Source of the DNA: a virus | DNA: 60,938 bases | Reading direction: 5' to 3' (one strand) | Virus record (IMG/VR): IMGVR_UViG_3300025577_000002 | Shown: piece by piece, positions 3,254 through 45,804 of the stretch | How the letters are laid out: each line of letters starts with the position of its first letter | Numbering within the stretch: position 1 is the first letter of the stretch | Translations under genes and position numbers: made by a program | Notes under the pieces: model-generated | Told to the model about the DNA's origin: nothing | Databases searched by the model: none | Seen by the model: the letters and a program-made list of their open reading frames with translations, nothing else

Positions 3254-3261
3254 GTGCCCAC

Positions 3262-32544: not shown

Positions 32545-32561
32545 GTTAGTGTGACACTAAC
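32545..32561 (-). repeat. 17-bp palindromic motif GTTAGTG-N3-CACTAAC, copy 1
   Basis: Plus strand reads GTTAGTGtgaCACTAAC. The TAG stop of the 89-aa gene lies inside the arm. It is 28 nt upstream of the SNF2 ATG. Confidence 0.9.
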
Positions 32562-32826
32562 TCTTTTTCTTATAGTTCCGTGCACGGTTCTTGCTTGCGC
32601 TTTCTATGATATACCCGTCTTTGTTCGAGCCGCCTTTCGACAGTGCCTTCTTATGGCTGACGTCTTTGCCCTCACGCTTGTCCGCTTTGCCATTCTTATC
32701 TTTATCCACACCTTCCTTGTCTACTGCTCTACGGGCACGCTGCCGTTCCATACGCGCCTTAAACTCCTTACTGTCTACCGGATTGTTCGTCTGTTTCTTT
32801 CGGTCTTTCGGATCTTTGTATGGCAT
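32557..32826 (-). CDS. small basic protein with degenerate HNH-like motif (89 aa)
   Basis: Very Lys/Arg-rich. ..GKDVSHKKALSKGGSNKDGYIIESASKNRAR.. resembles the D-x-x-H..GG..N..N core of HNH proteins. Confidence 0.35.
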   Translation of the reverse strand: MPYKDPKDRKKQTNNPVDSKEFKARMERQRARRAVDKEGVDKDKNGKADKREGKDVSHKKALSKGGSNKDGYIIESASKNRARNYKKKS

Positions 32827-33494
32827 TAGTTTCTCCCGTTATGTACGCACACTGTGACCGGGCAATACCTCTTACACAACCCACTAGGGTTAGGGTTCCA
32901 AGTATCTGCCTTCGCCGCAGCGTGCATGCGTGCATATTTGCCTAGCCATTTCTCCCAGAGTTTCGTCTTGTCGAAATCGGCATAGCTGTCTTTGATTAGA
33001 TCGTTACTAACAACGAACAGTAAGCCTGCCCGTATCTTCTTAACCTGTGGATAGTGGGCGAACACTGTAAGCGCCATCAGTTCTAGCTGGCCCTTATCCG
33101 CATACTTCGAGTTCTTACCTGTCTTATAGTCGATCACCCACGCGAGGTCACCATCCAATATGATCAGGTCGGCGATCCCCCGAAACCATACATCCTTGTC
33201 AAAGAACCCGCATGGCTCCAAGTTTTCCGTCATCCCCATCTTCAGTTCGCACAGCTTATCACCTTGTTTAGCGTTCAACGCGTCCAACATGTCCTGTGCA
33301 AAAGAAAACCTAATAGGTAGTGGAGTACCCTTACCGATGTAGTCTTCGGCAGAGGTATGAAACTCCGTACCGTATCGGGTAGCGTCAGTCTCCGTGAATG
33401 GATACTCTTTCAGTATCTTCTCATGGTAAAACTGCTTAGGACATTGTTCAAAAGATTTGATCTTACTGAACGACCACGGGGCTACATTTATCAT
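32826..33494 (-). CDS. Cas4/RecB-like PD-(D/E)XK exonuclease with Cys cluster (222 aa)
   Basis: An N-terminal Cys (..FEQCPKQFYHE..), ..GIADLIILDG..VIDYKTGK.. (D...D/E-x-K) and a C-terminal ..CKRYCPVTVC.. together form the 4-Cys Fe-S pattern of Cas4-like nucleases. Confidence 0.8.
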   Translation of the reverse strand: MINVAPWSFSKIKSFEQCPKQFYHEKILKEYPFTETDATRYGTEFHTSAEDYIGKGTPLPIRFSFAQDMLDALNAKQGDKLCELKMGMTENLEPCGFFDKDVWFRGIADLIILDGDLAWVIDYKTGKNSKYADKGQLELMALTVFAHYPQVKKIRAGLLFVVSNDLIKDSYADFDKTKLWEKWLGKYARMHAAAKADTWNPNPSGLCKRYCPVTVCVHNGRN

Positions 33495-35326
33495 TCACAA
33501 TCTCCATAGGATTGACCGGTTAAACTCTCACAGTCTAGGGGTAATCCGGCTGCCCATGAAGGTGTCTTTCGCATACACATATCGATATACGTCTGTGCTT
33601 CTGCCACCTCTGCATTGGGTACACAGCATACAACTGAGTCGTGCACGGTTAGCACAACGCGGTATCTCTTGGCTATTTGTAACATTTGTTCACCAATAAT
33701 ACAACGTGCTATCGCTTGGCAGACGTTCTCAACTACCTTCCCACCATAGATACGCGTTCGGCCTCGTCTAGTTTTGTACGTGTATTCCAGACCCTCCTCA
33801 GTGTACTCAGCCTTCAGATCCTCATACCGTAACAACAAACCAGATGGTATACGTATGGCCTTCTCTGCCCCAATCACTTCGAGGATACCTTCTAACCCGA
33901 TCTGTAACGTATACCCATCGGCAAGCTGCTTGACCATGCTCTGGGCATCACGCCAGACTTGGTTAATTTTACCATTAGCAGTACGGTATATACTAATAAC
34001 ACGTCGTGCCTCTTCCAGCTCCATATCGAAACCAAACGTCTTCAACTGTTCTTTGAACCGTACTGCACCCATGCCGTAACCTGCACCGAGAATGGTAACC
34101 TTACCAACGAACCGCTGGTCTTTGGTCACCTCGTCCACAGGCACACCATATATGCTCGACGCCATGTACTTATATACGTCTTCCTTGTTAGCAAACGCAG
34201 CTACCAAGTCATCCTGCCCAGCAAACCATGCCAAGACACGTGCTTCGATCTGTGCGGAGTCAGCGTCAATAATGGTGTACCCTTCAGGGGCCATGATACT
34301 ACTCTTTAACTTCTTACCGTTGACTCCCCGGCTAGGTAGGTTCTGCATGTTGATCTTATCATCACCTCCCCAGCGTCCGGTATGCGCGGCGTAGTAACGA
34401 ATCGGTACCGGCATCAGCCCCCGTTTGGATATATCTATAAACCTCTGAGTACGTGTTTCTTCTAAGGTGCTTTTCGTGCCCAGCCTTGCAGCAACCAACG
34501 CCTGTACTTGGTCGTTCTCATGGTCTAACAGTGCCTTGAAGGCTTCGTCGGACTTAGCAAACGCCCACGTCTCCTTACCTGTTGTCAGGCTTACCTTAGT
34601 CGGCGGAATTACGCCGAGTGCTTTAAGCACCTCAGCAAACTTCGGGTTACTCATCAGCTCTTTCTTATCAGTAACACCGGCGTCTGTTAACAGCTTATCC
34701 TTACGGTCTTTAACGTCTTCGAGGTGTGACTCCAGTAGGCCAGTATCGAGTTCAAGTATCGGATCGATAAACATACGCAGCGTCAGGTCGATAAGTCGGA
34801 GTTCCTGTTTAGGGAAACCTTTCTGCATCAGGATACCGAACAACTTGTACGTCAGGTCTACATCGTTGATACAGTAGTCACCGTACCGGTCTAGTTCTTC
34901 TGATGAAAAATCACCTCGTCGTTTTCCGAGGGCGTTGAGTACCTCCGTGCCCTTGACTCCGATATTATACCTTTCAGTAAGCGCTTTGAGACTTCCACCA
35001 ACTTCCACCCCATGAAGAGCACGGGACATGCAAAGAGTATCGGTATAAACGCGAGGATGCACACCAAAACGCCAGCTAAGAATGGCACCATCAAAAAGAG
35101 TATTGTGACAGAGGACCATAGACTCCGACCAATTGAAGGTGTGTAGGTATTCTCTGATCTGTTCATGCGTTCCACTTGCCCATTCAGTTTGTTCATTGTT
35201 AACCTTTATCCCTACACCGACCACCTCGAACTGTGGGTCACGGATGTATGATTCTGTTGTCATCTTAGATAGTGAAAATTCCTTACTGTAAAACGTCTCG
35301 AAATCTACGGTTATAAGGTCCATCAC
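33491..35326 (-). CDS. family A DNA polymerase with N-terminal 3'-5' exonuclease (611 aa)
   Basis: Exo I is ..ITVDFETFY... Motif A is ..IIDADSAQIEARVLAW.., motif B is ..RFVGKVTILGAGYGMG.. and motif C is ..VLTVHDSVV... Confidence 0.9.
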   Translation of the reverse strand: MMDLITVDFETFYSKEFSLSKMTTESYIRDPQFEVVGVGIKVNNEQTEWASGTHEQIREYLHTFNWSESMVLCHNTLFDGAILSWRFGVHPRVYTDTLCMSRALHGVEVGGSLKALTERYNIGVKGTEVLNALGKRRGDFSSEELDRYGDYCINDVDLTYKLFGILMQKGFPKQELRLIDLTLRMFIDPILELDTGLLESHLEDVKDRKDKLLTDAGVTDKKELMSNPKFAEVLKALGVIPPTKVSLTTGKETWAFAKSDEAFKALLDHENDQVQALVAARLGTKSTLEETRTQRFIDISKRGLMPVPIRYYAAHTGRWGGDDKINMQNLPSRGVNGKKLKSSIMAPEGYTIIDADSAQIEARVLAWFAGQDDLVAAFANKEDVYKYMASSIYGVPVDEVTKDQRFVGKVTILGAGYGMGAVRFKEQLKTFGFDMELEEARRVISIYRTANGKINQVWRDAQSMVKQLADGYTLQIGLEGILEVIGAEKAIRIPSGLLLRYEDLKAEYTEEGLEYTYKTRRGRTRIYGGKVVENVCQAIARCIIGEQMLQIAKRYRVVLTVHDSVVCCVPNAEVAEAQTYIDMCMRKTPSWAAGLPLDCESLTGQSYGDCE

Positions 35327-35577
35327 ATACCCACCTTTTCTATTAATTTATTCAGGTACCACTGCGCTTTCAGCAAATCTTCTTTCGGCTTGGCCTTGCT
35401 CTCATAACGCCAGAGGTATTTCAGTGCTGCGCCTTTGCAGTATCCCTTAAACGCCTCAGCTGTCATCGAGGCTTCTATACCATCAATGCACTCGACACTG
35501 CCGAAGCTGTAATGCGCTGGGTGGTTCACCATATCTTCTGTGTAGGGCATCTCCCTACGTGGGTTATCGTTCATCAC
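35323..35577 (-). CDS. DUF3310-family protein (84 aa)
   Basis: ..VNHPAHYSFGSVECIDGIE..FKGYCKGAALKYLWRYESKAKPKEDLLKAQWYL.. is the characteristic HPxHY ... KY..R..K...DL.KA pattern. Confidence 0.75.
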   Translation of the reverse strand: MMNDNPRREMPYTEDMVNHPAHYSFGSVECIDGIEASMTAEAFKGYCKGAALKYLWRYESKAKPKEDLLKAQWYLNKLIEKVGM

Positions 35578-35764
35578 CGTGCTCCTTCACACAGATCTCC
35601 GCATCGGTAGGCGCGCTTAGAGCATTCTTGCGAGCGACGCTGGCATACCACTTGAACACGTACTTCAGGGGTGACCACTTCGGGGCGATGGCCTCGGCTG
35701 TCTCACATATACACGCGAGGTCTTCCCAGTATTCTTTAGTCTTTGCTAACATACATTTCTCCAT
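35564..35764 (-). CDS. hypothetical protein (~62-66 aa)
   Basis: Inner part of track ORF 35564-35848. ATG 35764 or 35752 is the likely start; 35752 has a GGAGA RBS. The upstream part overlaps the VRR-NUC gene. Confidence 0.4.
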   Translation of the reverse strand: MEKCMLAKTKEYWEDLACICETAEAIAPKWSPLKYVFKWYASVARKNALSAPTDAEICVKEHGDER

Positions 35765-35777
35765 TGCAGTGCTGAGA

Positions 35778-36122
35778 TCACGTACCCGTAAACGCAAACG
35801 TAAGATCAAGTTCGAGCTGTTGTGGGTTCTTGTGCATACCACCAACATAGATCAGCACGTCGTCTATATTGTCTTCATTAATAACAATGGCTATACCACC
35901 GTTGGCTTTTATAGCTGATAAGTTCTTTTCTTGTAGGGGTGTTGGTTTGTTCTTACCCGCCTTACATTCTATACCAAAGAATGTACCTCCGTAACAACCA
36001 ATGATGTCTGGGACACCGCTATTACCAAATCCACCAGTGACTGGGTAGAAGTAGTAAGCCCCTAACGTCTTCAGGTGTGCTACTACTTTCTTCTTAACTT
36101 TCGCTTCTGGAGTCATCGCCAT
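35778..36122 (-). CDS. VRR-NUC domain nuclease (114 aa)
   Basis: ..GNSGVPDIIGCYGGTFFGIECKAGKNKPTPLQEKNL.. carries the PD...E-x-K VRR-NUC signature. Confidence 0.75.
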   Translation of the reverse strand: MAMTPEAKVKKKVVAHLKTLGAYYFYPVTGGFGNSGVPDIIGCYGGTFFGIECKAGKNKPTPLQEKNLSAIKANGGIAIVINEDNIDDVLIYVGGMHKNPQQLELDLTFAFTGT

Positions 36123-36123
36123 A

Positions 36124-36369
36124 TTACCATTTCCTCGTACTTAATTGTGTTGTTCTGGGTTCCCTGAGATTCTCTACAAGCAAAGAATTGTCGATGTGAT
36201 CTCGGGTATTCACACAACGTGCGCTTCTTGTGTGGCGCTTTGTTCCACCGCACAGTTCGCAGATTTTACCGTCGAAGAACTTTAGCTTCTGCTCTAACGC
36301 ATCTGCACGAGCGTACATTTTCTCGGCGTCGGACCGTAAACTTTCAGGTGTTACTTTTGCGTAGTTCAT
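36124..36369 (-). CDS. hypothetical Cys-containing protein (81 aa)
   Basis: ATG 36369 has a GGAGAG RBS and an ATGA overlap with the upstream gene. Contains ..CELCGGTKRHTRSARC... Confidence 0.45.
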   Translation of the reverse strand: MNYAKVTPESLRSDAEKMYARADALEQKLKFFDGKICELCGGTKRHTRSARCVNTRDHIDNSLLVENLREPRTTQLSTRKW

Positions 36370-36569
36370 GTTGTTACTCTCCATAATGCGTTTAGTTTAG
36401 TGTAGTCTATGCGATCTAGTTCGCTACGCGCAGTAACCTGCCTGTATTTTTCTTCGCACAGTATGCAGCTGCTGTGGCGTTTGCCGCTTTTGTGATTCAA
36501 GTAAAGCGGTGCGGCAACAATCCGCCCGCACGAGTAGCACGGCGCTTTCTGAGGTGTGTATCGGCTCAT
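36366..36569 (-). CDS. zinc-ribbon mini-protein (67 aa)
   Basis: CYSCGR...CILCEE pattern. Tightly packed in the operon. Confidence 0.45.
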   Translation of the reverse strand: MSRYTPQKAPCYSCGRIVAAPLYLNHKSGKRHSSCILCEEKYRQVTARSELDRIDYTKLNALWRVTT

Positions 36570-36784
36570 TTCGTTTCCTCGATATATTCATCTGAATTAT
36601 GATAGCAATCTTCACAAATAGGCCCTGTATCATCATTTAAATAGATTGAATCCTCTTCGCATCGGCCAGTTTCCGCGCTGCATTGGTAGCATAGCTGTAG
36701 CGTACCGGGGTAATTATGTTGATTCCACTCTTTATGATCACTTTGAGACATTGCGTGCTTGTGTCCATCTGGCCATGTATTCAT
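36566..36784 (-). CDS. Cys-rich mini-protein (72 aa)
   Basis: ..[13 protein letters not shown]...PICEDCYH.. pattern. It overlaps its neighbours by 4 nt. Confidence 0.45.
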
Positions 36785-37323
36785 TTCGTTTCCTCGAATC
36801 CGGTTGGCTCTGCCGGTGACAGTTCAATTACTGATTTAATAAAGTCCTTGTATTTACGCCAGAATTTAATCGCTACTTTGCCATCCCTTTCTAATATGAA
36901 GGTGTCACTAAAATCCCACCATTCTGCTATTTCGCGACGTTGGCAGCCAATTTGCAGGATATTACTGGTGTATGTGATCGGGTAGGTGCTTGATACAAAT
37001 AAAGATTTTATGTGTTTTCGGTTCCCTGCGCAGCCATTAAGACAGGCATCGCTCAAGTTGGCACCGCTCAAGTCGGCACCGCTCAAGTTGGCTTGGCTCA
37101 AGTTGGCATCGCTCAAGTTGGCATCGCTCAAGTTAGCACCGCTCAAGTTAGAACCGTGCAAGTTAGAACCGCTCAAGTTAGCACCGCGCAAGTCGGCACC
37201 GCTCAAGTCATAACCGCGCAAGTTAGAACCGCTCAAGTTGGCATGGACGCCGCTTTTACCTTTATGCAGCCACAAGTCATGCAGCTCTAATATGGTTTTT
37301 AGTTGCTCTGTTGTGTAGTTCAT
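36781..37323 (-). CDS. pentapeptide-repeat protein (180 aa)
   Basis: About 16 consecutive A(N/D)LSx pentapeptides: [79 protein letters not shown] upstream. The C-terminal 75 aa are unrelated. Confidence 0.85.
37046..37243. repeat. 15-bp tandem DNA repeat (~13 units) encoding the pentapeptide repeats
   Basis: Plus-strand units such as caccgctcaagttgg / caccgctcaagtcgg are repeated head to tail. Confidence 0.85.
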
Positions 37324-37365
37324 TTACTTAACTCCTGTTTGTGTCCATTAAATGTACGCCCCGTC

Positions 37366-37488
37366 TCAATCCTCGTCGGCTACCTCGTCTTCCCAAATGT
37401 CGTAGGCAGTTGCTTCGGTATCCGCTGCGACAGGCAGTGTTTGCTTTTCCATACGGTCATCTAACCAGCTAAGCATATAAATGTTCAT
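37366..37488 (-). CDS. possible acidic mini-protein (40 aa)
   Basis: Not in the track. It has an ATGA overlap with the HTH gene. Translation is MNIYMLSWLDDRMEKQTLPVAADTEATAYDIWEDEVADED. Confidence 0.25.
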   Translation of the reverse strand: MNIYMLSWLDDRMEKQTLPVAADTEATAYDIWEDEVADED

Positions 37489-37655
37489 TGTGATTGTGCC
37501 TCCAACCATTCCATTAATGTTGTAACGATGGGGAATGAGACCCGCTTACCCCCGTTTGCTAAGTTGTATATAGTCGAGTAACTGACACCTGTCTCCCGCG
37601 CAACGTACTTCAGGTTAAGAGGTTTCAGCCTGTGCTGTAGTTGTTCCAGTGTCAT
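37485..37655 (-). CDS. XRE/Cro-type HTH protein (56 aa)
   Basis: Not in the track (under 60 aa). It has a TAATG overlap with the dUTPase stop. Translation is MTLEQLQHRLKPLNLKYVARETGVSYSTIYNLANGGKRVSFPIVTTLMEWLEAQSQ, containing the classic ..A..TGVS..TI..L..G.. HTH. Confidence 0.6.
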   Translation of the reverse strand: MTLEQLQHRLKPLNLKYVARETGVSYSTIYNLANGGKRVSFPIVTTLMEWLEAQSQ

Positions 37656-38083
37656 TAGTTGACCCCCGTTGAGCCAAAACCTTTCGCGCCGCGCGTGGTG
37701 TCGTCCAGCTCATCCACCTCAGTCGAGACCAGCATTGCCGGCACTACAAGTAACTGTGCGATACGCTCACCGCGCTCAACTCTAAACGGCACGATGTCTG
37801 TACTGTGAACCGTCATCACGACGCGGATCTCGCCACGGTAGTCTGAATCAATTACACCTGCCATAGTGTCCACGCCTCGGCTAACGGCCAGCCCACTACG
37901 TGGTTTGATCAGACCAACGAACCCATCTGGTATGGCAACGGCGATCCCTGTACTGATAGTCACTACCTGTCCGAAGTGAACGCGAGCGACGTCTTGGTCT
38001 GAGTAGATGTCGAACCCGGCGGATCCCGCTGTGGCCCGTTTTGGTGTTGTACACGTCGTTGTCAAGCGTTTGAATTTTATCAT
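37655..38083 (-). CDS. dut: dUTP diphosphatase
   Basis: dUTPase motifs are present in order: ..AGSAGFDIYS.., ..GLIKPRSGLA.., ..GVIDSDYRGEI.., ..RIAQLLV.., ..RGAKGFGSTG. Confidence 0.9.
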   Translation of the reverse strand: MIKFKRLTTTCTTPKRATAGSAGFDIYSDQDVARVHFGQVVTISTGIAVAIPDGFVGLIKPRSGLAVSRGVDTMAGVIDSDYRGEIRVVMTVHSTDIVPFRVERGERIAQLLVVPAMLVSTEVDELDDTTRGAKGFGSTGVN

Positions 38084-38086
38084 GGT

Positions 38087-38284
38087 CTATACCTTGAGAA
38101 GAACTTGAGGAAATATGATGTCGATGTTCGCCAGCACTGCCAGCAGCACAACCACCAAGCTGTATATTACGACGGCACTATAAACTGCCCAGTACCAACG
38201 CATATGTTCAAAATAGATACAGTAAGCTATCTGTACACAGAACATAACTACTGCTAAAGCTATCATTACGTATAGTGTTATCAT
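38087..38284 (-). CDS. small two-TM membrane protein (65 aa)
   Basis: Inner start ATG 38284 with a GGAGA RBS. Translation begins MITLYVMIALAVVMFCVQIAYCIYFEHMRWYWAVYSAVVIYSLVVVLLAVLANI... Confidence 0.5.
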   Translation of the reverse strand: MITLYVMIALAVVMFCVQIAYCIYFEHMRWYWAVYSAVVIYSLVVVLLAVLANIDIIFPQVLLKV

Positions 38285-38430
38285 TTCATTCTCCGTTTCG
38301 CTGCTTCTGTTATTGCTTGTTGTTCTGCCTCTGTTGCGGTAGCCCACGATTTAAGATCTTCGAGAGTCCTACCACAGCCGACACAGACCTCGGCTACTAC
38401 CTTACAAACTTTTACGCATGGGCTGGGCAT
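38281..38430 (-). CDS. DUF1289-like Cys-rich protein (49 aa)
   Basis: Not in the track. GGAGA RBS upstream. Translation is MPSPCVKVCKVVAEVCVGCGRTLEDLKSWATATEAEQQAITEAAKRRMK, which shows the SPC-x3-C ... C-x-GC-x-RT..E...W pattern. It has an ATGA overlap with the next gene. Confidence 0.55.
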   Translation of the reverse strand: MPSPCVKVCKVVAEVCVGCGRTLEDLKSWATATEAEQQAITEAAKRRMK

Positions 38431-38433
38431 TGC

Positions 38434-38834: not shown

Positions 38835-38887
38835 AACTTAGTTCCTCTTTTTTGATACCAGTTCCCGAAGGGCTGGTGGCCCCCCGT

Positions 38888-38904
38888 GTTAGTGCGTCAC
38901 TAAC
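38888..38904 (-). repeat. 17-bp palindromic motif, copy 2
   Basis: Plus strand reads GTTAGTGcgtCACTAAC. It is 1 nt after the TAA of the 38906 gene and 53 nt upstream of ATG 38834. Confidence 0.9.
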
Positions 38905-38905
38905 A

Positions 38906-39331
38906 TTATCTATAAACCCAATAGACGTTGACGTCTATCCTACGTCCGATACCCACAATGTCTATTGTGGGGGGCACTGCACTGGTCAGCATTAGTACTG
39001 CTAACTTCTCCTGTACCCACAAAGGCAACGCATCTACCGAAGGATATGTAGCATCCAGCGGAGTGTCAAGCTTATCTATACCTAAACATATCACACCGAC
39101 AGGTTTCGTACCCTCCAGTACGATAACGCGGTATATGTTATCATCCTGTATAGATCCACCGTTATCACCTACCCAGTACCACTCAGTGTCGGTGCTAGTG
39201 GATGCAAAAGGATTCTTCACCGTGAGATACCTCGGGTTAAACTTAATCGATTCCTGCCACTTCTGCGCCCTAACCGTTTCCGAACCCACAGCTAGCGAAC
39301 GTAGCTTACCAACATACTTAATCCACCACAT
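38906..39331 (-). CDS. hypothetical protein (141 aa)
   Basis: The track ORF begins at a GTG (39346). The first in-frame ATG is 39331 (MWWIKYVGKL..). Confidence 0.45.
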   Translation of the reverse strand: MWWIKYVGKLRSLAVGSETVRAQKWQESIKFNPRYLTVKNPFASTSTDTEWYWVGDNGGSIQDDNIYRVIVLEGTKPVGVICLGIDKLDTPLDATYPSVDALPLWVQEKLAVLMLTSAVPPTIDIVGIGRRIDVNVYWVYR

Positions 39332-40214
39332 AGAACATGCCTTCACCGGCGCGGTACCCTACACCATCGACGTACTCGCCATCGGCTAACATGTTAAGAA
39401 CAGATAGTTTACCCATGATGTGATCCGGTAGGTTGTCTGCTTCGTAGCGATCTACTGTGTTAGATGTCGATGTATACGCGGATGTCGCATTGCCGATATA
39501 TACAGTCTCAAACTTCTGAGCACCCATGCACTCATAAACACGAACGAACCACATCGGTACCTCGCGACCAGACAGCGCACTACTATTATCCTTTAGCTCG
39601 AAGTACTTCGCTAAGTCTGCACTGAACGCTGGGCTTAGAAACGTATGTCCAGCTTTTACCAGATGTCGTAGCTCTGTAAGTAGTGGGCTGTCAGGTGTAT
39701 AGGATGATATGTTAAACATCGTCTCTACGGACGCTCGTAAGTCCTGCCGAGCTGTATGCGCCACGCTAGTAACCTTACTCACTACGTCTGAAAAGGTTAC
39801 CTTCAACATATCTTGTGGGCTGTAAGGTCGCATGTACCGCTTAATGTGGCGCAGTGCGGTGGCGCAGCTACCCGTCGTCTTCGTATAGTAAGCGGCGTTA
39901 TAGTCAGAGTACCGGTTGTTCGCTATATTCGGGCTACTGATGGTGTACTCAGTACTCCACCTGCCGGTGCCGTATTCCCTTGTCTCGGGTTTCTGCCCAG
40001 CGGATACCCAACCTACGCAGTACGGGTTACCCTCTATATACATATACAGTGAGGCACGATCCCGCATTATAAACTGCATACCCCGGACACTTGAGGCGAT
40101 GTTACTCTTTAGTATCTTAATAGACTCTGATTGATCGGCATCTGCCCAACCGGATGTAATTCGTTTCTCTTCTGTTAGTGCTTCACTAACAAGTTTATGT
40201 CTGAAAGTAATCAT
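39318..40214 (-). CDS. hypothetical protein (298 aa), downstream partner of the MoxR/VWA pair
   Basis: TAATG overlap with the VWA gene and an AGGAGA RBS. No recognisable motif. Confidence 0.55.
   Translation of the reverse strand: MITFRHKLVSEALTEEKRITSGWADADQSESIKILKSNIASSVRGMQFIMRDRASLYMYIEGNPYCVGWVSAGQKPETREYGTGRWSTEYTISSPNIANNRYSDYNAAYYTKTTGSCATALRHIKRYMRPYSPQDMLKVTFSDVVSKVTSVAHTARQDLRASVETMFNISSYTPDSPLLTELRHLVKAGHTFLSPAFSADLAKYFELKDNSSALSGREVPMWFVRVYECMGAQKFETVYIGNATSAYTSTSNTVDRYEADNLPDHIMGKLSVLNMLADGEYVDGVGYRAGEGMFYVVD
40174..40190 (-). repeat. 17-bp palindromic motif, copy 3 (intragenic, codons 9-14)
   Basis: Plus strand reads GTTAGTGcttCACTAAC. It encodes V-S-E-A-L-T and lies 24 nt after the VWA gene stop. 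Confidence 0.9.
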
Positions 40215-41392
40215 TACATATCTCCTGAATTAATGTTTACCGTTACGCCTACGTCTGGGTTGGCACGTTTATTGTCTAAGATGCACCATAGTACGGGGCA
40301 TGACCAGTTACCCCATGTACCCCCAAGGTATCCATCTGTCAATACTATGGCGGCTTGTGGCTTGACGCCGTGCTCGGTCAGGTACGCTGGGATACATTCC
40401 ACATTCGTGCCACCACCACCTGCTGGCTTAGTAGTGTTGATGAGATCATCGAGTTCGTGCATCAAATATTTCTCATCCTGACAAACCGCGCTGTCCCAGT
40501 ACAATAAACGTACAGCTTCAGGGTGTACGGTGTCACATATACTCTTCACTTCGGATAGGAAGTGGCTAAGCTCGGTATGTCCAATAGATCCTGATGTGTC
40601 GATGGCGATAACCAGCTCACCCACACTCTCACTAACACCTGATGGCATGTAGTAACCACCTGCAACATACCTTCTGTTAGGACGTTGCCATGTAGAGTAG
40701 TCATTACCTGCACACGTTGTCGATATAAAGTCGCGCAGTACCTCACGCCAATCTATCTGGGGCTGGAGTAGTTCGGCTAAGTCACGATCACCCCCAGTGC
40801 CCAGCTTACCGGCGATCAACGCACCCTGACGTATCGCCTCATCTATATCTCGTGCCAGCTCCCGCTGTTCTTCCTGAGTAAGCTCTTTCGCTCCATCCCA
40901 GTCGTGCTCATCCATACCCCCGGCACCTTCACCGTTGTCGCCATCTTCCTTGAGCATGCTGTATACCTTCGCGCTGTCCATGCCCCGGTACTTCGGATCG
41001 TAGCAGCCGCCTTCGGGTAACGTCGCCCAGCCATCTCGGTTGTCATCTAAAAGCTTACAGTTGATAACGAAGTCACACGCTACATTCGCTAGCTGTGGGT
41101 TCTCGTCGTACAGGTGCCGCCATGTAGTGAGGTGCCGGTAGAGTTTGTGGTAACACTCGTGCAGTACTAGGAACCGTAGCTCTGGGTCGTTAAGTGTGTC
41201 GATGAAGTCACGTCCGTACTTCTCATCACGCCCATTAGTACAGGCTGTCGGGACATCATCGTCTATGCTGCGATCCCCGATCATAAGTACACCCGCTAGG
41301 GCTACGTACTTCGGACTGCCCATAATATCCACTACTGCTTTGGATAACCGTTGTTCTTGTGTAAGTTGTTTTCCGATAGATAACATACTCAT
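40214..41392 (-). CDS. VWA-domain protein with N-terminal HExxH metallopeptidase-like domain (392 aa)
   Basis: The HExxH motif ..FLVLHECYHKLYRH.. is at nt 41147-41161. The MIDAS motif is ..VIAIDTSGSIG... This architecture is typical of partners of MoxR-type AAA+ ATPases (CobT-like). Confidence 0.75.
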   Translation of the reverse strand: MSMLSIGKQLTQEQRLSKAVVDIMGSPKYVALAGVLMIGDRSIDDDVPTACTNGRDEKYGRDFIDTLNDPELRFLVLHECYHKLYRHLTTWRHLYDENPQLANVACDFVINCKLLDDNRDGWATLPEGGCYDPKYRGMDSAKVYSMLKEDGDNGEGAGGMDEHDWDGAKELTQEEQRELARDIDEAIRQGALIAGKLGTGGDRDLAELLQPQIDWREVLRDFISTTCAGNDYSTWQRPNRRYVAGGYYMPSGVSESVGELVIAIDTSGSIGHTELSHFLSEVKSICDTVHPEAVRLLYWDSAVCQDEKYLMHELDDLINTTKPAGGGGTNVECIPAYLTEHGVKPQAAIVLTDGYLGGTWGNWSCPVLWCILDNKRANPDVGVTVNINSGDM

Positions 41393-41398
41393 TCTCCT

Positions 41399-41415
41399 GT
41401 TAGTGACGCACTAAC
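41399..41415 (-). repeat. 17-bp palindromic motif, copy 4
   Basis: Plus strand reads GTTAGTGacgCACTAAC. It is wedged exactly between the TAG of the AAA+ gene and the AGGAGA SD of the VWA gene. Confidence 0.9.
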
Positions 41416-42515
41416 TATTTCTTGTCTGCTGCGAACATGTAGTTGTTGTTCATGGCCCACTGTGTGAACTTTTTATTGGTCATGATCAGCTGCTGCTTGG
41501 CATACTTCGGGGTACGGACACCGTTAGCAAACATACCCTGCGCTTCCTTGTCCAGTCGTGGCATGTAGTCCATCCACGCATCTACCCAATCTTTGTCGAG
41601 ACTTGCTAGGCTGCGGTATACAACCATACATACCGCAGAGGCAGAGTCAGGCACCTTAGCGTTAAGCGGATCCTGCTTGATACTTTCGAGTGACGGTAAC
41701 TGATCGGCCAGCTTGACGAACGCCATCAGATCCATCGCGCCTCGGTCACCAATAGTACCCATGAGTAAACCTGTTAGTGTCTGGTCATCGAACTGTTCGC
41801 GAGTCTTGAGCCAGTCGGACGCCGCCTCTAGTGACCGAGGTGTAACAAACGCTGGACGCTGCTGCTTGGGATGATAGATGTACGGGTTATCATCTGGGTT
41901 CTTGATATCTTCGAAGCCATGAAACAGGTGTGGGTTATCCTTGCACCAGCCCAGTAGTGTGTGATCGATGCCGTTGTTGATACCCCACTCGATCCATTCC
42001 ATGTGGTCAGGCTTACGGGCCGTAATAACAGTCATCCGGTTACGGGCATGGGGTGGTAACAAGTCACCGACACCTTCGGCACCGAGGTTGGTCGTCGCAA
42101 ACACAACGCTGTCCTCGTGTAACTCATACGATCCTATCTTACGTTCGAGCATCAGTCGCAGCATGGCATTCTTGACGGCGGGGTTCGCCTTGCCGTACTC
42201 GTCAATCATCAGGATGATCGGCTTGTCGAGGTGTGCACCTAACTCCTCGTTGGTGGCGTACGATACATAGTCTGTACCCGCTTCTTCTGACATGGTGGCA
42301 AGTTTCGGTATTGATATGTCACCGAGATCCTTAGTCGTGCAGTCGAAGTAACACGGGGTGTGAGTCGGTAGCTCACCTGCTAACATCTTGAGTAGCGAGG
42401 ACTTGCCGGTACCCATGTGGCCTTGGATCAGTACGGTACGCTTGGTACCACCTGCTTTGATAGCTGACATGATCTGGTCAAGACCGAGGGCGTACATCTG
42501 GGCTGCATTGTTCAT
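41415..42515 (-). CDS. MoxR/CobS-like AAA+ ATPase (366 aa)
   Basis: Walker A is ..IQGHMGTGKSSL.., Walker B is ..IILMIDEYGKA.. and sensor-1 is ..VFATTNLG... The start is taken as ATG 42515 (MNNAAQMYAL..) because of its AGGAGA RBS and ATGA overlap with the upstream gene; the track ORF extends to 42566. Confidence 0.8.
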   Translation of the reverse strand: MNNAAQMYALGLDQIMSAIKAGGTKRTVLIQGHMGTGKSSLLKMLAGELPTHTPCYFDCTTKDLGDISIPKLATMSEEAGTDYVSYATNEELGAHLDKPIILMIDEYGKANPAVKNAMLRLMLERKIGSYELHEDSVVFATTNLGAEGVGDLLPPHARNRMTVITARKPDHMEWIEWGINNGIDHTLLGWCKDNPHLFHGFEDIKNPDDNPYIYHPKQQRPAFVTPRSLEAASDWLKTREQFDDQTLTGLLMGTIGDRGAMDLMAFVKLADQLPSLESIKQDPLNAKVPDSASAVCMVVYRSLASLDKDWVDAWMDYMPRLDKEAQGMFANGVRTPKYAKQQLIMTNKKFTQWAMNNNYMFAADKK

Positions 42516-42531
42516 AGTAGTTCTCCTAGTG
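42508..42531 (-). repeat. 24-nt duplicated translation-initiation region, copy 1
   Basis: The plus-strand sequence ttgttcatagtagttctcctagtg is identical to 42690-42713. On the minus strand it reads CACTAGGAGAACTACTATGAACAA. Confidence 0.9.
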
Positions 42532-42697
42532 AGTCGGTGTAAGTAAATCCGCTGTTGGTGTCGCATCCGATCTTGTATGCCTGTTGAATACTGATGTTGC
42601 GCTGGTGCAGATCTGCAATCTGCTCGTCAGTCAGTGGGCATCCAGCGAATCCGTACTTGGCAAACTCTTGCTGTAGTGCTTCGCGGTACTTGTTCAT
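42512..42697 (-). CDS. hypothetical protein (61 aa)
   Basis: Track ORF with an AGGAGA RBS. Its last six codons are the duplicated TIR of the AAA+ gene. Confidence 0.5.
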   Translation of the reverse strand: MNKYREALQQEFAKYGFAGCPLTDEQIADLHQRNISIQQAYKIGCDTNSGFTYTDSLGELL

Positions 42698-42713
42698 AGT
42701 AGTTCTCCTAGTG
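42690..42713 (-). repeat. 24-nt duplicated translation-initiation region, copy 2
   Basis: Identical to 42508-42531. It abuts 17-bp motif copy 5. Confidence 0.9.
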
Positions 42714-42729
42714 TTAGTGACTCACTAAC
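42713..42729 (-). repeat. 17-bp palindromic motif, copy 5
   Basis: Plus strand reads GTTAGTGactCACTAAC. It is 3 nt after a TAA stop and 15 nt upstream of ATG 42697. Confidence 0.9.
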
Positions 42730-42732
42730 TTA

Positions 42733-43008
42733 TTATTGGGTGGTTGTAAACTTCATCTTAGCTAAGGACTCGTCGAGTGGTACACCAGCGTGCATCGCTA
42801 TGTGGTTGTATACCTTCACACCTTCCAGCTCTGCCATACGCTCGACCTGTTTCTTGACTAGCCAATACGGTGACGCAGGTACTATCTCCACAATGTCAGG
42901 GTACAGGTACCCAGCTGGTTGGTAGGCGTCGTCGTCCATATAAACACCCGCTGCTCGTGCTAGACCGTTACCTGCGTCGTATATCTCGATTGATCGTAAT
43001 GTAATCAT
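42733..43008 (-). CDS. hypothetical protein (91 aa)
   Basis: Track ORF with a GAGGGGA RBS. Confidence 0.5.
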   Translation of the reverse strand: MITLRSIEIYDAGNGLARAAGVYMDDDAYQPAGYLYPDIVEIVPASPYWLVKKQVERMAELEGVKVYNHIAMHAGVPLDESLAKMKFTTTQ

Positions 43009-43029
43009 ATTATTCCCCTCAGAATAGTT

Positions 43030-43046
43030 GTTAGTGTGTCACTAAC
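43030..43046 (-). repeat. 17-bp palindromic motif, copy 6
   Basis: Plus strand reads GTTAGTGtgtCACTAAC. It sits immediately after the TAA of the 311-aa gene and 21 nt upstream of ATG 43008. Confidence 0.9.
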
Positions 43047-43982
43047 TTACATGTCAAGTGATGGTAGTGCTTTGATAACGTCATCTACCACACGTTTCGT
43101 TTCGGCGCGGAGATACCCATCCTCCCGTAATGCATCTGGTGTAATCCCCCGCAGTGTGTTTTCTAGCTTCAGACGCAATGCCGACATCTGTGAATCGTTG
43201 GTGATATTGCACACGTCTAGCAGATCTACTATGTCGAGCACATTAGACACCAGCGTGTCTCGAAAGATCTTCTTCTGTCCGCTGTCACCATAGTCGAGCC
43301 GTTCGGACATTGCTGTTAGTGCCTTGAATGCACGTTGCCACACATCCTGCATCGCACTGTGTAACTGGGCCTCGTAATACGCTTGGTAGTGGTCTTTGAC
43401 CTGCTGATTCCCCTCGTTACCAACATCGACGCGAAAGTCACCTGCTTCTGGCAGTGGGATGTATGAGAACCGGAACTTAAACTTCTGCGCAATGCTGGCC
43501 GCTTCGGGGTACTCCTCACGGGAGAACAGGTTACCTAAGTTGGCCTGCGCTTGACTGATCTCCCAGTCATAAGCATCAATAAACTGTGCTACAAGACGTT
43601 CGTACTCGTTCTGCACCTCTGTCATGGTCTGGTGATACTTGAAATACGCCGCAGTTGGCAGAAGACGCATTCCGGTATCAGACCATGGCATAGTCATAGA
43701 GTAGTGTAGGTTACGGACATTAGCAGTGAACTTCTGCACTGCATCTAGCTCTGCGCAGTTGCCCAGTAGCTTTTTGTTGACGTTGGCCACACCTGCTGCT
43801 GCATAGTTCTGTGAGGTGATGTCCTTTGACGCCCGCTTGTCTAACTTACGCGCTGTCCATGTAGAGATACTTAACTCTACCAACATCGATGAAGATGCGA
43901 TGGATGGTGCTGTTGGGGCTTGTGGTGCTTTGTTAGTTGTTAGTGGCTCACTAACATTGTGTTGCTGCGTTGTATGGTTCAT
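43047..43982 (-). CDS. DUF3150-like protein (311 aa), first gene of early operon
   Basis: GGAG RBS lies 9 nt upstream of ATG 43982. The sequence (..MLVELSISTWTARKLDKRASKD.., ..FRFSYIPLPEAGDFRVD..) resembles what I recall of DUF3150, a family that co-occurs with CobS/CobT-like pairs. This rests on memory, not a search. Confidence 0.45.
   Translation of the reverse strand: MNHTTQQHNVSEPLTTNKAPQAPTAPSIASSSMLVELSISTWTARKLDKRASKDITSQNYAAAGVANVNKKLLGNCAELDAVQKFTANVRNLHYSMTMPWSDTGMRLLPTAAYFKYHQTMTEVQNEYERLVAQFIDAYDWEISQAQANLGNLFSREEYPEAASIAQKFKFRFSYIPLPEAGDFRVDVGNEGNQQVKDHYQAYYEAQLHSAMQDVWQRAFKALTAMSERLDYGDSGQKKIFRDTLVSNVLDIVDLLDVCNITNDSQMSALRLKLENTLRGITPDALREDGYLRAETKRVVDDVIKALPSLDM
43939..43955 (-). 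repeat. 17-bp palindromic motif, copy 7 (intragenic, codons 10-15)
   Basis: Plus strand reads GTTAGTGgctCACTAAC. It encodes V-S-E-P-L-T. An extra GTTAGTT half-site is adjacent. Confidence 0.9.
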
Positions 43983-44071
43983 AACAGTGTACTCCAGTTG
44001 GTTTAAGGCTCAGTGGGGCGCGAGGGGCGGTGTCTGACTAACTAACTGTGAGAACCCCCACCGAGATACAT

Positions 44072-44100
44072 ATTATGACACAAGTAGCGAAGAATGTCAA
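44072..44100 (-). promoter_or_regulatory. near-consensus sigma70 promoter (early, leftward)
   Basis: On the minus strand: TTGACA (44100-44095), 17-nt spacer, CATAAT (44077-44072), with TG at the extended -10 position. It lies about 85 nt upstream of ATG 43982. Confidence 0.6.
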
Positions 44101-44256
44101 AGGATGCCAAAACGTGTCGAGTTGTGTAATGTTCTTGTGTTTAGTGTATTGTTCTTACAGTGAAGTGACCTAAGTCATTGATTTATAAGTACTGTTCGAA
44201 TGTTCGCTTTTGCGCAGATAGGAGAGACCTGCTGAGAGGGGGTCCGAAGACGCAAG

Positions 44257-44460
44257 AAAACGTACAGTCATTTCGAGCGGCAAAAAGGTTGGGAGCCAAT
44301 TTCGTGGAAAACGTACTTTATATATTAATATTAAGAATAAGTATATATAGATAAACCTCGATACTTTGACGCTGGTATGTTTCGTCGGTGCTTACTAGTG
44401 CCTACAACAAAATGTCACGAAACTACATTGTACGTTTAGGGCCTTTAAAAAACGTACAAT
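44257..44460. promoter_or_regulatory. iteron-like AAACGTAC repeats flanking an AT-rich block (candidate replication origin or operator region)
   Basis: aaaacgtaca is at 44257-44266 and aaaacgtact is at 44308-44317. An 11-bp inverted pair attgtacgttt (44427-44437) / aaacgtacaat (44450-44460) follows. An A/T-rich stretch occupies about 44317-44354 (ttatatattaatattaagaataagtatatatagataaa). Confidence 0.3.
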
Positions 44461-44547
44461 ACAAGAACATTACCCCCCTTTTTCGTACAGTACACGCGGC
44501 ACTAAGGCTAGAACGCGAACATTACAAATATGGCTGTTTTGCGTTGG

Positions 44548-44575
44548 CGCAACGCGACCCGAGGAACTGGTATCA
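44548..44575. repeat. 28-bp perfect direct repeat, copy 1
   Basis: cgcaacgcgacccgaggaactggtatca is identical to 44679-44706. Confidence 0.9.
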
Positions 44576-44603
44576 CGACGTAAGAATCCTCCGCCATAGC
44601 TTT

Positions 44604-44620
44604 GTTAGTGACGCACTAAC
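44604..44620 (-). repeat. 17-bp palindromic motif, copy 8 (non-coding)
   Basis: Plus strand reads GTTAGTGacgCACTAAC. It lies midway between the two 28-bp direct repeats. Confidence 0.9.
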
Positions 44621-44678
44621 AAGTCCTAGTGTGTTATATCGAGGTGGCATGTATAGACAACCAATTGTTATCGGCTCA

Positions 44679-44706
44679 CGCAACGCGACCCGAGGAACTG
44701 GTATCA
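44679..44706. repeat. 28-bp perfect direct repeat, copy 2
   Basis: Identical to 44548-44575, with 131-bp periodicity. Confidence 0.9.
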
Positions 44707-44727
44707 ATGCCCGATAAAATCGAGGCG

Positions 44728-44750
44728 AAAAAAAACCCGCCGAAGCGGGT
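44728..44750 (-). terminator. rho-independent terminator (minus strand) after lipoprotein gene
   Basis: On the minus strand: ACCCGC-UUCG-GCGGGU followed by U8 (plus-strand A-run 44728-44735). The stem abuts the TAA stop. Confidence 0.85.
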
Positions 44751-44908
44751 TACATGGCATCCCAGATCATAGCTGGGGTGATGCAGGAGCTGTACTCGGT
44801 CCAGTGCTCTTCGTCCCACGACTGGCAACCGGTTATTGCGTTGATCATGATGAAACCTAGTAAGAAGCCTAGTAAGAAGCCTAGTAATGCTGTGCTGATA
44901 TGTTTCAT
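44750..44908 (-). CDS. small lipoprotein (52 aa precursor)
   Basis: Not in the track. AAGGAA RBS upstream. Translation is MKHISTALLGFLLGFLLGFIMINAITGCQSWDEEHWTEYSSCITPAMIWDAM. It has a signal peptide and lipobox-like AITG|C, giving a mature peptide of about 25 aa. The h-region is encoded by a 12-bp tandem repeat (44856-44887). Confidence 0.6.
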   Translation of the reverse strand: MKHISTALLGFLLGFLLGFIMINAITGCQSWDEEHWTEYSSCITPAMIWDAM

Positions 44909-44925
44909 TGTGGTTCCTTAATAGC

Positions 44926-44945
44926 GGGGCGGCAATTGCCGCCCC
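44926..44945. terminator. GC-rich 8-bp hairpin (attenuator/3'-stabiliser candidate)
   Basis: ggggcggc-aatt-gccgcccc lies 8 nt after the stop of the 169-aa gene. There is no clear U-tract on the minus strand. Confidence 0.4.
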
Positions 44946-44952
44946 TTATTAG

Positions 44953-45462
44953 TTATAGTAGTTTGATCGCGGCCAGTACTTGCTGGCGCATCTTAATGAC
45001 GTCAAACTTTGGTTCTTCTAAACTGGCGCACACTTTCAAGATATCGTTCAATGAATCCCGGATGCGCTGGTCTGGTGTCCGTGTTCGACTGGTGCTGCCT
45101 TCAATTTCCTTCTTAGTGCGCTTCTCTAATGCGCTTTTGAAGTCATTGCGTTTGGCGCCAATTTGTTGCTGAGCGTATCGCTTGCTTGCCTTCTGGCTAT
45201 CGGACAAGCTCTTAGTGTTCTTTATCAGTAGCGCTTGTGTAGGAGCGGGAAACCCCTTTATGATCGCGGCATTGATACTATCGAACAACTCCTCACTCGC
45301 CGTGCTCTTAGTGTCCTTCGTCTTGGGTGATATAAAGTCAGTCGACTTAAACCCCTCTGCGATTAAGGTGTCGATCGCCGATACCATTGACTTGTCTGCC
45401 TTAGAAGATGCTGATACGGCGGCAGTGATACGGGTTGCGGTTGCAGTGTTTAGCTTATTCAT
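44953..45462 (-). CDS. hypothetical early protein (169 aa)
   Basis: It is the first ORF downstream of the 45520-45548 promoter, with a GAGAG RBS. It is S/T/K-rich with no recognisable motif. Confidence 0.55.
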   Translation of the reverse strand: MNKLNTATATRITAAVSASSKADKSMVSAIDTLIAEGFKSTDFISPKTKDTKSTASEELFDSINAAIIKGFPAPTQALLIKNTKSLSDSQKASKRYAQQQIGAKRNDFKSALEKRTKKEIEGSTSRTRTPDQRIRDSLNDILKVCASLEEPKFDVIKMRQQVLAAIKLL

Positions 45463-45519
45463 AATGTTCTCTCTTAGTTAGTTGGGTAACATATCCAGCC
45501 CCTCGCTAGATATGCAACC

Positions 45520-45548
45520 ACTATAGCGAACACCTGATAACTTATCAA
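45520..45548 (-). promoter_or_regulatory. sigma70-like promoter (early, leftward)
   Basis: On the minus strand: TTGATA (45548-45543), 17-nt spacer, TATAGT (45525-45520). The -35 element overlaps the palindrome TGATAAcTTATCA (45536-45548). Confidence 0.55.
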
Positions 45549-45591
45549 TAGATAAACTAACCGGCTGATAAGTTTAGCCATTCCTCGCTAT

Positions 45592-45608
45592 GTTAGTGGC
45601 GCACTAAC
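45592..45608 (-). repeat. 17-bp palindromic motif, copy 9 (divergent intergenic region)
   Basis: Plus strand reads GTTAGTGgcgCACTAAC. It is about 45 nt upstream of the -35 of the leftward promoter and is flanked by two ctaaccggc repeats. Confidence 0.9.
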
Positions 45609-45804
45609 AAAAGCTAACCGGCCAGCGACGCGGGGAAAAGCGGCCAAAGACAACCCCACATACCCCCCACCAACCACTTTGTGGCGTAGGAATCCTGCGG
45701 CTCCTATGAATTACTAATACGTGGGAACAATGGCCACTTTTTTGAGTTTGGTACCCCCACCCCCTCAATATGGCGATACCCCCCGGGTCAAAATATTAAT
45801 GGAC

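Follow-up and report, generated by a model that had tools for sequence, protein, structure and literature searches.

Multi-copy short palindromes have already been reported in phages. Cluster O mycobacteriophages carry a 17-bp repeat, 5'-TGTTCGGNNNCCGAACA (TGTTCGG-N3-CCGAACA), in more than 30 copies genome-wide; its authors proposed a dimeric binding protein, and the role of the repeat is still unexplained (PMC4351075). The stoperators of Cluster A mycobacteriophages are 13-bp, asymmetric, transcription-oriented sites that are read by a two-domain monomer, occur 20-30 times per genome over the whole genome and serve lysogenic immunity (PMC6550527, PMC9283540), and their motifs co-vary with the repressors between subclusters (PMC6550527). 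Here we describe a 17-bp palindrome, GTTAGTG-N3-CACTAAC, that recurs nine times in a 60,938-nt stretch of viral DNA (IMG/VR record IMGVR_UViG_3300025577_000002, hereafter the window). The Cluster O repeat is its nearest published look-alike and, by analogy, the Cluster A stoperator-repressor pair is the nearest understood system; the sites are a new version of the theme of many copies of one operator. Their unusual and well-documented aspect is that the whole site set is re-typed between close relatives.

With the Cluster O repeat the palindrome shares 7-bp inverted arms around a free 3-bp centre, arms that are invariant within a genome, a beginning in TGTT, an enrichment in short intergenic gaps and gene 5' ends, and insertions or deletions between copies, here a cassette at 42733-43008. 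Unlike the more than 30 Cluster O copies, which are spread across the genome of a siphovirus of actinobacterial hosts, the 6-13 copies seen here (nine in the window) are confined to the early arm; moreover, the Cluster O centre is biased to AAA/TTT, and neither lineage-specific arm types nor switching were reported there. Because the function of the Cluster O repeat is unexplained, this comparison gives no mechanism. Like stoperators (L5 gp71, Bxb1), the palindromes are many copies of one short site, mostly distal to promoters and near gene boundaries. A phage repressor binds the stoperators and blocks elongation, and we propose the same here; the stoperator consensus co-varies with the repressor, and here there are eight site types, which are tracked by a candidate reader encoded at 44953-45462, with few independent switches. 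The palindromes differ from stoperators in being symmetric, 17-19 bp long and restricted to the early arm, their sole asymmetry being an A after the site in 91% against a T before it in 63%, and in belonging to a phage without lysogeny genes in the scanned open reading frames (ORFs) and without prophage copies.

Two further systems invite comparison. The Cro/CI operators of lambdoid phages are 17-bp near-palindromes, read by dimers of helix-turn-helix (HTH) proteins and arranged as three plus three operators that overlap promoters. The sites described here resemble them in their conserved outer bases and free centre, in a putative regulator that is encoded first in the early operon and in a specificity that diverges between close relatives (heteroimmunity), but about ten sites lie mostly far from promoters and the structural model of the candidate reader is without a fold match. 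The KorB OB sites of RK2 and the ParB-parS system use several identical palindromes of 13-16 bp, whose distance from the promoter is not fixed and which exert their effect remotely. parS shares the initial TGTT (TGTTTCAC-GTGAAACA), whereas neither kind of site has a free 3-nt centre; no ParB-domain protein was found in Pfam/PHROG scans of about 50 ORFs, in which the smallest ORFs were not all included.

The window is a phage genome of about 61 kb, lytic-looking in its gene content. In the plus arm are the genes for terminase, portal, capsid and SU10-type adaptors, together with those for two giant virion proteins, and the minus arm (45.6 to 24.8 kb) runs from small early genes through a trio of DUF3150, AAA-ATPase and VWA-metallopeptidase genes to a replication module. 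The motif has exactly nine perfect matches, starting at 32545, 38888, 40174, 41399, 42713, 43030, 43939, 44604 and 45592. These are the nine positions of the original prediction, which had put the chance expectation close to zero, and 100 dinucleotide-preserving shuffles of the sequence gave no match. When up to two mismatches were allowed, no copy was added in the window, so that the set is all-or-none; in relatives the motif family is widespread. All nine copies lie in the early arm; the late arm, in this phage as in its relatives, has none.

Read on the minus strand, the coding strand of this arm, the base after the motif is A in 9/9 copies and the base before it is T in five and A in four, exactly the flanks noted earlier. 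Among 704 sites of relatives the corresponding figures are A after in 91% and T before in 63% (88-91% and 52-63% over all the sets counted). The proposed orientation with transcription is thus real but modest, and the shortage of T before the site is due in part to abutting stop codons. The element is best described as a 19-bp palindrome, T-GTTAGTG-N3-CACTAAC-A. On either strand, two of the three reading frames of the motif are interrupted by TAG and TAA; consequently only one frame can code, and the motif is tolerated between genes or in that frame, which accounts for the V-S-x-x-L-T peptides encoded by intragenic copies and for much of the intergenic and boundary placement. Folded as RNA, its hairpin has a calculated energy of -6.9 to -7.6 kcal/mol, and folded as DNA one of -4.8 to -6.6 kcal/mol, with z-scores of -2.5 to -5. 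The element does not have the make-up of an intrinsic terminator, the stem having three G-C pairs out of seven and the next sequence on the coding strand being A-rich.

A scan of IMG/VR with the exact motif returned 120 loci, chosen by the motif itself, of which 88 are relatives at 65-77% nucleotide identity, many with 4-9 copies. Within 686 kb of these motif-chosen relatives, GTTAG-N7-CTAAC occurs 245 times, the N8 spacing 37 times and the N9 spacing four times, while other spacings occur 0-4 times each (0.65 expected). Mismatches are concentrated in the two inner stem pairs, and lone half-sites are at about chance frequency. As a safeguard against motif-selection bias, loci were also collected by their ATPase gene, which is encoded on more than 400 IMG/VR contigs. 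Among the best 80 of these, 76 loci were new; 70 of the 76 carry GTTAG-type sites (3-13 each), and the other six, without GTTAG...CTAAC, mostly carry a variant palindrome. The set used for typing comprised 105 non-redundant loci, each of about 20 kb around the ATPase gene, with 704 sites in total and 3-13 per locus. The 3 kb just ahead of the ATPase gene (control region and DUF3150 gene) contain 1.2-2.0 sites per kb, against about 0.6 per kb over the following 4 kb and few beyond, and the density is highest in and around the equivalent of the control region 44000-44733. Farther upstream of this gene, two sites were found at 5-6 kb and none in the 142 kb sampled at 6-10 kb, which are mostly late arm. 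Loci anchored on the primase (80 from an alignment scan, after a single-protein scan had given 6) mostly have no site and hence could not be typed. The feature is real, strongly selected and widespread in an abundant group of uncultured marine phages. A full-text literature search for the two arm sequences returned nothing relevant.

The sites of all genomes share the form T-GTTA-xyz-N2-4-z'y'x'-TAAC-A, in which the outer T-GTTA...TAAC-A is invariant. The inner part is uniform within each genome and differs between genomes, in at least eight versions (GTG, GGG, GGC, TAC, TCC, TGCC, GTCC and TAG). This phage has GTTAGTG-N3-CACTAAC, and its relatives have GTTAGGG-AMT-CCCTAAC, GTTAGGC-N3-GCCTAAC, GTTATAC-N3-GTATAAC, GTTATCC-AST-GGATAAC, GTTATGCC-AC-GGCATAAC, GTTAGTCC-AC-GGACTAAC or GTTATAG-N4-CTATAAC. 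Both halves match the genome's own type in 660 of the 704 sites, so that there is essentially one type per genome. An example is the pair L201 (TAC) and L180 (GGG), whose ATPases are 97% identical and whose alignment runs at 85% straight through the junction sites, yet the type is switched. Other close pairs of switched type are IMGVR_UViG_3300042465_000293 and 3300027734_000066 (TAC) against 3300046010_000754 (GGG), and 3300032324_000012 (GGC) against 3300035670_000189. Seven genomes retain, at the orthologous DUF3150-ATPase junction, a site placed after the stop codon and before the Shine-Dalgarno sequence, in each case of the type proper to that genome. Three loci (L211, L199 and L239) depart from uniformity in that most of their sites are hybrids of two half-sites, in both orientations. 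Locus L193 (IMGVR_UViG_3300028925_002853, 2413-9543) has GTTAGTCC-type sites upstream and GTTATGCC-type sites downstream of its ATPase gene and is either a natural recombinant or a chimeric assembly.

Since the arms are identical within a genome but differ between close relatives, a co-evolving, sequence-specific reader encoded by the phage is needed. An element recognised by structure only is unlikely, because pure structure does not require identical arms in all copies. Sites for a host transcription factor were rejected because the type differs between close relatives, and no such change is expected of a host factor from one near-identical phage to another. The palindromes are therefore very probably sites for a phage-encoded, sequence-specific reader. 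This sharpens the earlier suggestion of a site for a dimeric DNA- or RNA-binding protein, and several features considered below favour double-stranded DNA.

The best candidate for this reader is the first early gene (44953-45462, minus strand; 169 amino acids), which tracks the site type best among the sampled genes. All ORFs of the 105 loci were clustered into families and each family was compared with the site type. Among the widely present families, that of 44953-45462 has the lowest identity between phages of different type. When pairs with ATPases at least 90% identical are considered, its products are at most 38% identical or unalignable if the types differ and have a median identity of 74% if they agree, while the DUF3150, ATPase and VWA proteins, a 298-amino-acid protein and a 210-amino-acid late-arm protein are 75-95% identical in either case. 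The nearest neighbour of a 44953-45462 homologue shares its site type in 84% of cases, compared with 20-58% for nine other genes. Comparison of L201 with L180 and with L205 places the gene in one of the few segments without nucleotide homology, and it is always bracketed by sites. Its product belongs to no Pfam or PHROG family. An AlphaFold2 model (pLDDT 86) is all-alpha with a long basic helix at residues 88-121, which carries a family-invariant K-R-Y/W-x-Q-Q-x-G core, and the residues behind this core vary with the site type. These data suggest that the product of 44953-45462 may be the reader, a tentative identification whose chances we put somewhat below even; if it holds, the circuit would be one of negative feedback.

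Three HTH proteins had been put forward as binders in the original prediction (37485-37655, 30240-30509 and 24781-26010), the gene 44953-45462 not being among them, and two of the three were compared across relatives. The Cro-like HTH gene 37485-37655 was rejected, as it is an accessory gene present in just a few near-identical relatives. The HTH of 30240-30509 is nearly invariant across diverged relatives, none of those covered being of another site type, and for that reason it cannot explain a lineage-specific triplet.

The early arm is served by two conserved sigma-70 promoters, both on the minus strand. P1 (45520-45548; TTGATA-17-TATAGT) has equivalents in relatives (TTGACA-17-TAcAGT). P2 (44072-44100; TTGACA-17-TG-CATAAT), a strong sigma-70-like promoter ahead of the DUF3150 operon, has equivalents in L072, L013 and L087. 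A strong intrinsic terminator (44734-44751, minus strand), a hairpin followed by T8, closes the first short operon. Between it and P2 lies the non-coding control region 44000-44733, about 0.7 kb, with direct repeats, AATGTTC/GAACATT and AAACGTAC repeats and an AT-rich core (44319-44349); it looks like a replication origin in its sequence features. A search of 43800-45950 with the covariance models of Rfam 15 gave no match at E<=1. In relatives the control region has a conserved box (ACCAGTTCYTNGRGYCGCGTTGMG) with a palindrome behind it, a unit that is repeated in tandem two or three times, for example at 10219-10530 of L088.

Site 1 (45592-45608) lies about 43-44 nt upstream of the P1 -35 element and about 130 nt before the ATG of 44953-45462. 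Of 44 relatives, 36, of all site types, have a site 100-155 nt upstream of their homologue of 44953-45462, and where a strong promoter is recognisable it is 25-48 nt before the -35. Site 2 (44604-44620), after the terminator, is bracketed by a 27-41-bp direct repeat (44535-44575 and 44666-44706) and in relatives its place is taken by the 2-3 tandem box-plus-palindrome units. Both sites are non-coding, and site 1 is ahead of the promoter, as had been claimed. The two copies said to encode V-S-E-x-L-T early in genes, at codons 9-15, do so: site 3 (43939-43955), some 110 nt past the expected P2 start, covers codons 10-15 of the DUF3150 gene (V-S-E-P-L-T), and site 7 (40174-40190) covers codons 9-14 of gene 39318-40214 (V-S-E-A-L-T). 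The N-terminal tail of DUF3150 in relatives likewise holds one or two palindrome copies.

The placement described for five further copies, at or overlapping the upstream stop codon and ahead of the next start, also holds; they begin -5 to +3 nt from the end of the stop codon and 12-53 nt before the start. Site 4 (43030-43046) directly follows the TAA stop of the DUF3150 gene and forms the upstream edge of a cassette with a 91-amino-acid gene (42733-43008, minus strand) that is present only in this phage; site 5 (42713-42729) forms its downstream edge, 3 nt separating it from the stop codon of 42733-43008 and 15 nt from the start codon that comes next. Relatives have one site at this junction, where this phage has two. 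Site 6 (41399-41415) is wedged, as reported before, between the AAA-ATPase gene and the VWA/DUF2201 gene, the G of the TAG stop being the first base of the motif and the AGGAGA following directly. Site 8 (38888-38904) is 1 nt after the stop of 38906-39346 and next to a G+C-rich hairpin (38850-38887, CCAGCCCTTCGGGAACTGG). Site 9 (32545-32561) is an outlier in the replication module, with the TAG stop of 32557-32826 inside the motif; another G+C-rich hairpin (32521-32538, GCGCCCTACCTAGGGCGC) and the SNF2 helicase gene come next. Neither hairpin has a U-tract. Half-site-like repeats (CTAAC, CTTAAC) were also seen behind the full site at the DUF3150-ATPase junction of L180 (about 3812-3830), L201 (about 9960-9990) and L217 (about 9972-9990), and behind the 43939 site of the window at 43925-43938.

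Taken as a whole, there is about an even chance that the palindromes are operators through which a phage-encoded, twofold-symmetric reader controls early genes. Host sigma-70 RNA polymerase would start at P1 and P2, and the first early product, or another phage protein, would bind the roughly ten sites as a symmetric, probably dimeric, protein. Its half-site would be T-GTTA plus the lineage-specific triplet, in about 6-13 copies per genome. The sites stand ahead of P1, within the control region, some 110 nt past P2 and at almost all early gene junctions or in the first codons, and the bound protein would limit or shut early transcription by blocking elongation at many points, as Cro or the stoperators of mycobacteriophages would suggest. 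The inner triplet would act as a specificity code, diverged between competing relatives, that keeps the circuit private to a phage type. Of the parts of this proposal, control of early transcription by the bound protein falls just short of an even chance; by analogy with the known systems, we infer that the effect of binding is repression or a roadblock. What the sequences themselves show is the anatomy of the sites and their co-variation with 44953-45462.

We further infer that the reader binds duplex DNA as a dimer, which the sequences distinctly favour over recognition of a hairpin. In 36 of 44 loci the upstream site sits in DNA outside the early-promoter transcript, and in the window the second site follows a strong terminator. 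Sites 1 and 2 are thus probably not part of the early mRNA. Half-sites change independently of one another: variant sites are hybrids of two half-site types (GTG+GGG, GTG+GTC or GTC+GCC, for example), which as hairpins would oppose T.C, G.A, G.G or C.A, and a wobble pair occurs in just 1 of 22 single-variant sites. The composition of the centre is symmetric under reverse complement, with G avoided at its first position and C at its third, and the flanking T...A prolongs the symmetry of the palindrome.

A number of observations weigh against operators read by the 44953-45462 product as a dimer. This protein has no recognisable DNA-binding fold: neither Foldseek, run on PDB and BFVD, nor a profile search of the PDB sequences returned a significant match. 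GGG versus TAC makes up 18 of the 23 controlled pairs, so that few independent switches lie behind the association with site type; the gene also adjoins the densest sites, and linkage could add to the association. The type tracking covered about 20 kb around the ATPase gene, and the reader may be encoded elsewhere, for example by the primase-helicase gene or a late gene. The distant Rhizobium phage RHph_TM3_14A (MN988472.1) has a GTTA...TAAC-type palindrome, 26 copies of GTTAC[CT]-N5-6-[GA]GTAAC in both arms, without a detectable 44953-45462 homologue; a hidden Markov model of the family found none in this phage or in Pseudomonas phage KPP25. The upstream site is clear of the P1 promoter itself and stands anywhere between 25 and 48 nt from the -35 in relatives, which means that it is not a classical occluding operator. 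As there are neither lysogeny genes nor prophage copies, the stoperator analogy cannot include lysogen immunity. Finally, 10-25% of the sites within one genome have a centre longer by one base, and a centre of either 3 or 4 nt is easy for a hairpin and not for a rigid dimer, and the better conservation of the A after the site hints at strand specificity.

KPP25 has no such palindromes. About half of those of RHph_TM3_14A are inside genes, their right arm is often Shine-Dalgarno-like (GAGGT), and the repeat is absent from the annotation of the record.

If the operator reading were nevertheless right in its strongest form, lytic marine phages would possess a hitherto undescribed protein-DNA recognition module that is quick to re-programme: a new all-alpha DNA-binding fold would read T-GTTA-xyz, its triplet specificity would have been re-set at least seven times among close relatives with all of the roughly ten operators rewritten, and the system would be an incompatibility or exclusion determinant between co-infecting phages, an 'immunity group' without lysogeny. 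We regard this extension as rather unlikely. Should the candidate protein bind, its fold would be a new one for DNA binding, its specificity code could be read from the sites, and orthogonal operator-repressor pairs would be at hand. The pair of reader and site is directly testable, since a single candidate gene, duplexes of 19 bp and natural specificity variants are available. The related metagenomic contigs, more than 400, and the at least eight versions of the element, with all copies switched together even where two phages are otherwise almost the same across this region, amount to a natural experiment, and the data suggest how regulatory specificity may diversify in abundant, uncultured, apparently lytic marine phages.

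The variable centre and the 3' A bias just mentioned are better accommodated if the element is a stem-loop in early mRNA, or in the single-stranded coding strand, that is read by a phage protein and controls translation, cleavage or stability of each early cistron, close to the processing or stabilising elements that the original prediction had offered as an option. The predicted hairpin is stable at the energies and z-scores given above, centres of 3 and 4 nt coexist in the same genome, an A follows 88-91% of sites in the direction of transcription compared with a T before 52-63%, copies stand just before Shine-Dalgarno sequences or 20-45 nt inside coding regions, and the inner stem pairs co-vary between lineages. 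However, the conserved copy upstream of P1 and the one after the strong terminator would probably not be in early mRNA, and the hybrid sites give oppositions that do not pair; in L211, L199 and L239 the coding strand would have C.A among them. The scarcity of wobble pairs (1/22), the reverse-complement symmetry of the loop and the identity of the arms in each copy, which pure structure does not need, point the same way, and the placement at gene boundaries is largely due to the stop codons in two motif frames. We therefore consider the stem-loop improbable.

The main alternative at the level of DNA is an origin-related role, since site density peaks in an origin-like region. The phage initiator, perhaps the C-terminal part of the primase-helicase (26391-29231), would then bind or be loaded at the palindromes, with a specificity that diverged between lineages. 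There is a parallel in satellite phage P4, whose alpha primase-helicase binds TGTTCACC octamers at ori and crr. The non-coding DNA in which the density peaks has AATGTTC repeats that resemble iterons, as well as an AT-rich core and box-plus-palindrome units in tandem; the primase-helicase is moreover shared with RHph_TM3_14A, which has GTTA...TAAC palindromes, and was undetected in KPP25, which has none. The 'putative integrase' of the RHph_TM3_14A record (42239-45322) is the protein that aligns with the primase-helicase of the window. Against a role in replication, the sites run on for 8-10 kb, at almost each early gene junction, and within the sampled region the type follows the first early gene, which leaves this explanation little probability.

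It is very improbable that the copies serve primarily as recombination or cassette-boundary elements for the gain, loss and shuffling of early genes, in the manner of the T4-type promoter-stem-loop cassettes. Several observations are of the kind that this would produce: the unique cassette 42733-43008 is bounded by two copies where relatives have one, sites come and go as small intergenic insertions (at the ATPase-VWA junction of L180 versus L201, for example), homology breakpoints near sites number 42 against 15.5 expected, and comparable indels lie between the repeats of Cluster O (PMC4351075). But no recombinase was identified, breakpoints gather at gene boundaries anyway, 17 bp is short for homologous exchange, and the genome-wide uniformity of type together with its switching inside conserved flanks needs a reader. 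Shuffling between copies is more likely a by-product.

The promoters of phage N4 that are used by its virion RNA polymerase (vRNAP) require that polymerase, a purine at the loop centre (-11), -10G and -8G, while other stem bases are free if paired (PMC4496689). The original prediction had pointed to this architecture, and the palindromes do resemble it in stem and loop size (7-bp stems against 5-7 bp, with 3-nt loops) and in their early location; eight of the nine lie in the arm that is likely the first into the cell, and two giant virion protein genes are present. Yet promoters of this type, extruded from supercoiled DNA for an injected virion polymerase, have next to no probability here. N4 has three such promoters, with a conserved loop and upper stem and a need for vRNAP, gyrase and single-stranded DNA-binding protein, none of which applies to these sites. 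Neither giant ORF (8251-14682 and 18028-24735) matches a vRNAP family in PHROG or Pfam or a PDB chain at E<=1, and neither has polymerase motif B or T/DxxGR; the first encodes 2143 amino acids, rich in alanine and in repeats. What N4 vRNAP reads, the loop and upper stem, is the variable part of these sites, the base of the stem being fixed, and the central loop base across sites is C in 39%, G in 36%, A in 12% and T in 13%. Conserved sigma-70 promoters already serve the early arm, and some copies lie within coding sequence just behind start codons. Chi-like sites (lone half-sites at about chance level), core sites of restriction type or for a recombinase (centres of odd length, 2-4 nt, and no such enzyme gene) and CRISPR-repeat mimics (no conserved flanks) were dropped.

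The phage itself has no close cultured relative: a megablast search of 38-46 kb against 50,697 phage records returned nothing, and the nearest relatives of its DNA polymerase, those of the Rhizobium RHph_TM phages and Pseudomonas phage KPP25, are just 35% identical. Integrase, partition and CI-like genes were absent from the roughly 50 ORFs scanned with Pfam and PHROG. No prophage copy was found in the representative genomes of 185,579 species, the search giving one uninformative 2-kb Flavobacteriales contig of a metagenome-assembled genome at 57% identity. The replication module comprises a family-A DNA polymerase, a RecB-type exonuclease, an SNF2 helicase and a PrimPol-DUF927 primase-helicase (the ORF at 26391-29231).

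Several genes deserve mention in their own right. The alanine-rich ORF 8251-14682 of the virion module contains about ten tandem repeats of about 37 amino acids (…FVGQ…YVDP…) and has no homologue in PHROGs, Pfam or PDB. An exonuclease (24781-26010, minus strand; phrog_704) has an N-terminal HTH of the GerE/LuxR type, an unusual fusion. The ORF 32557-32826 (minus strand), whose TAG stop lies inside the 32545 palindrome, encodes a very basic protein of 89 amino acids that is conserved in relatives; the gene follows that of the RecB-type exonuclease and precedes that of the helicase. By eye the protein shows a string like that of HNH enzymes (D-x2-H…GG…N…N), without a Pfam match. The segment 36100-39300 is hypervariable, alignments with relatives stopping at 36122 and restarting near 39328, and holds accessory genes for a dUTPase, a pentapeptide-repeat protein and the Cro-like HTH protein as well as several small ORFs. 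Just ahead of the strong intrinsic terminator, a 52-amino-acid ORF on the minus strand (44750-44908) has a lipobox-like ...ITGC motif and three tandem 12-nt repeats (44852-44887) that encode LLGF. Relatives carry an additional early gene, missing from the window, for a small zinc-ribbon protein (CxxC…CxxC, TraR/DksA-like by eye; L201 8456-8695, L013 about 4520-4740), and in L013 a palindrome lies in the first codons of this gene.

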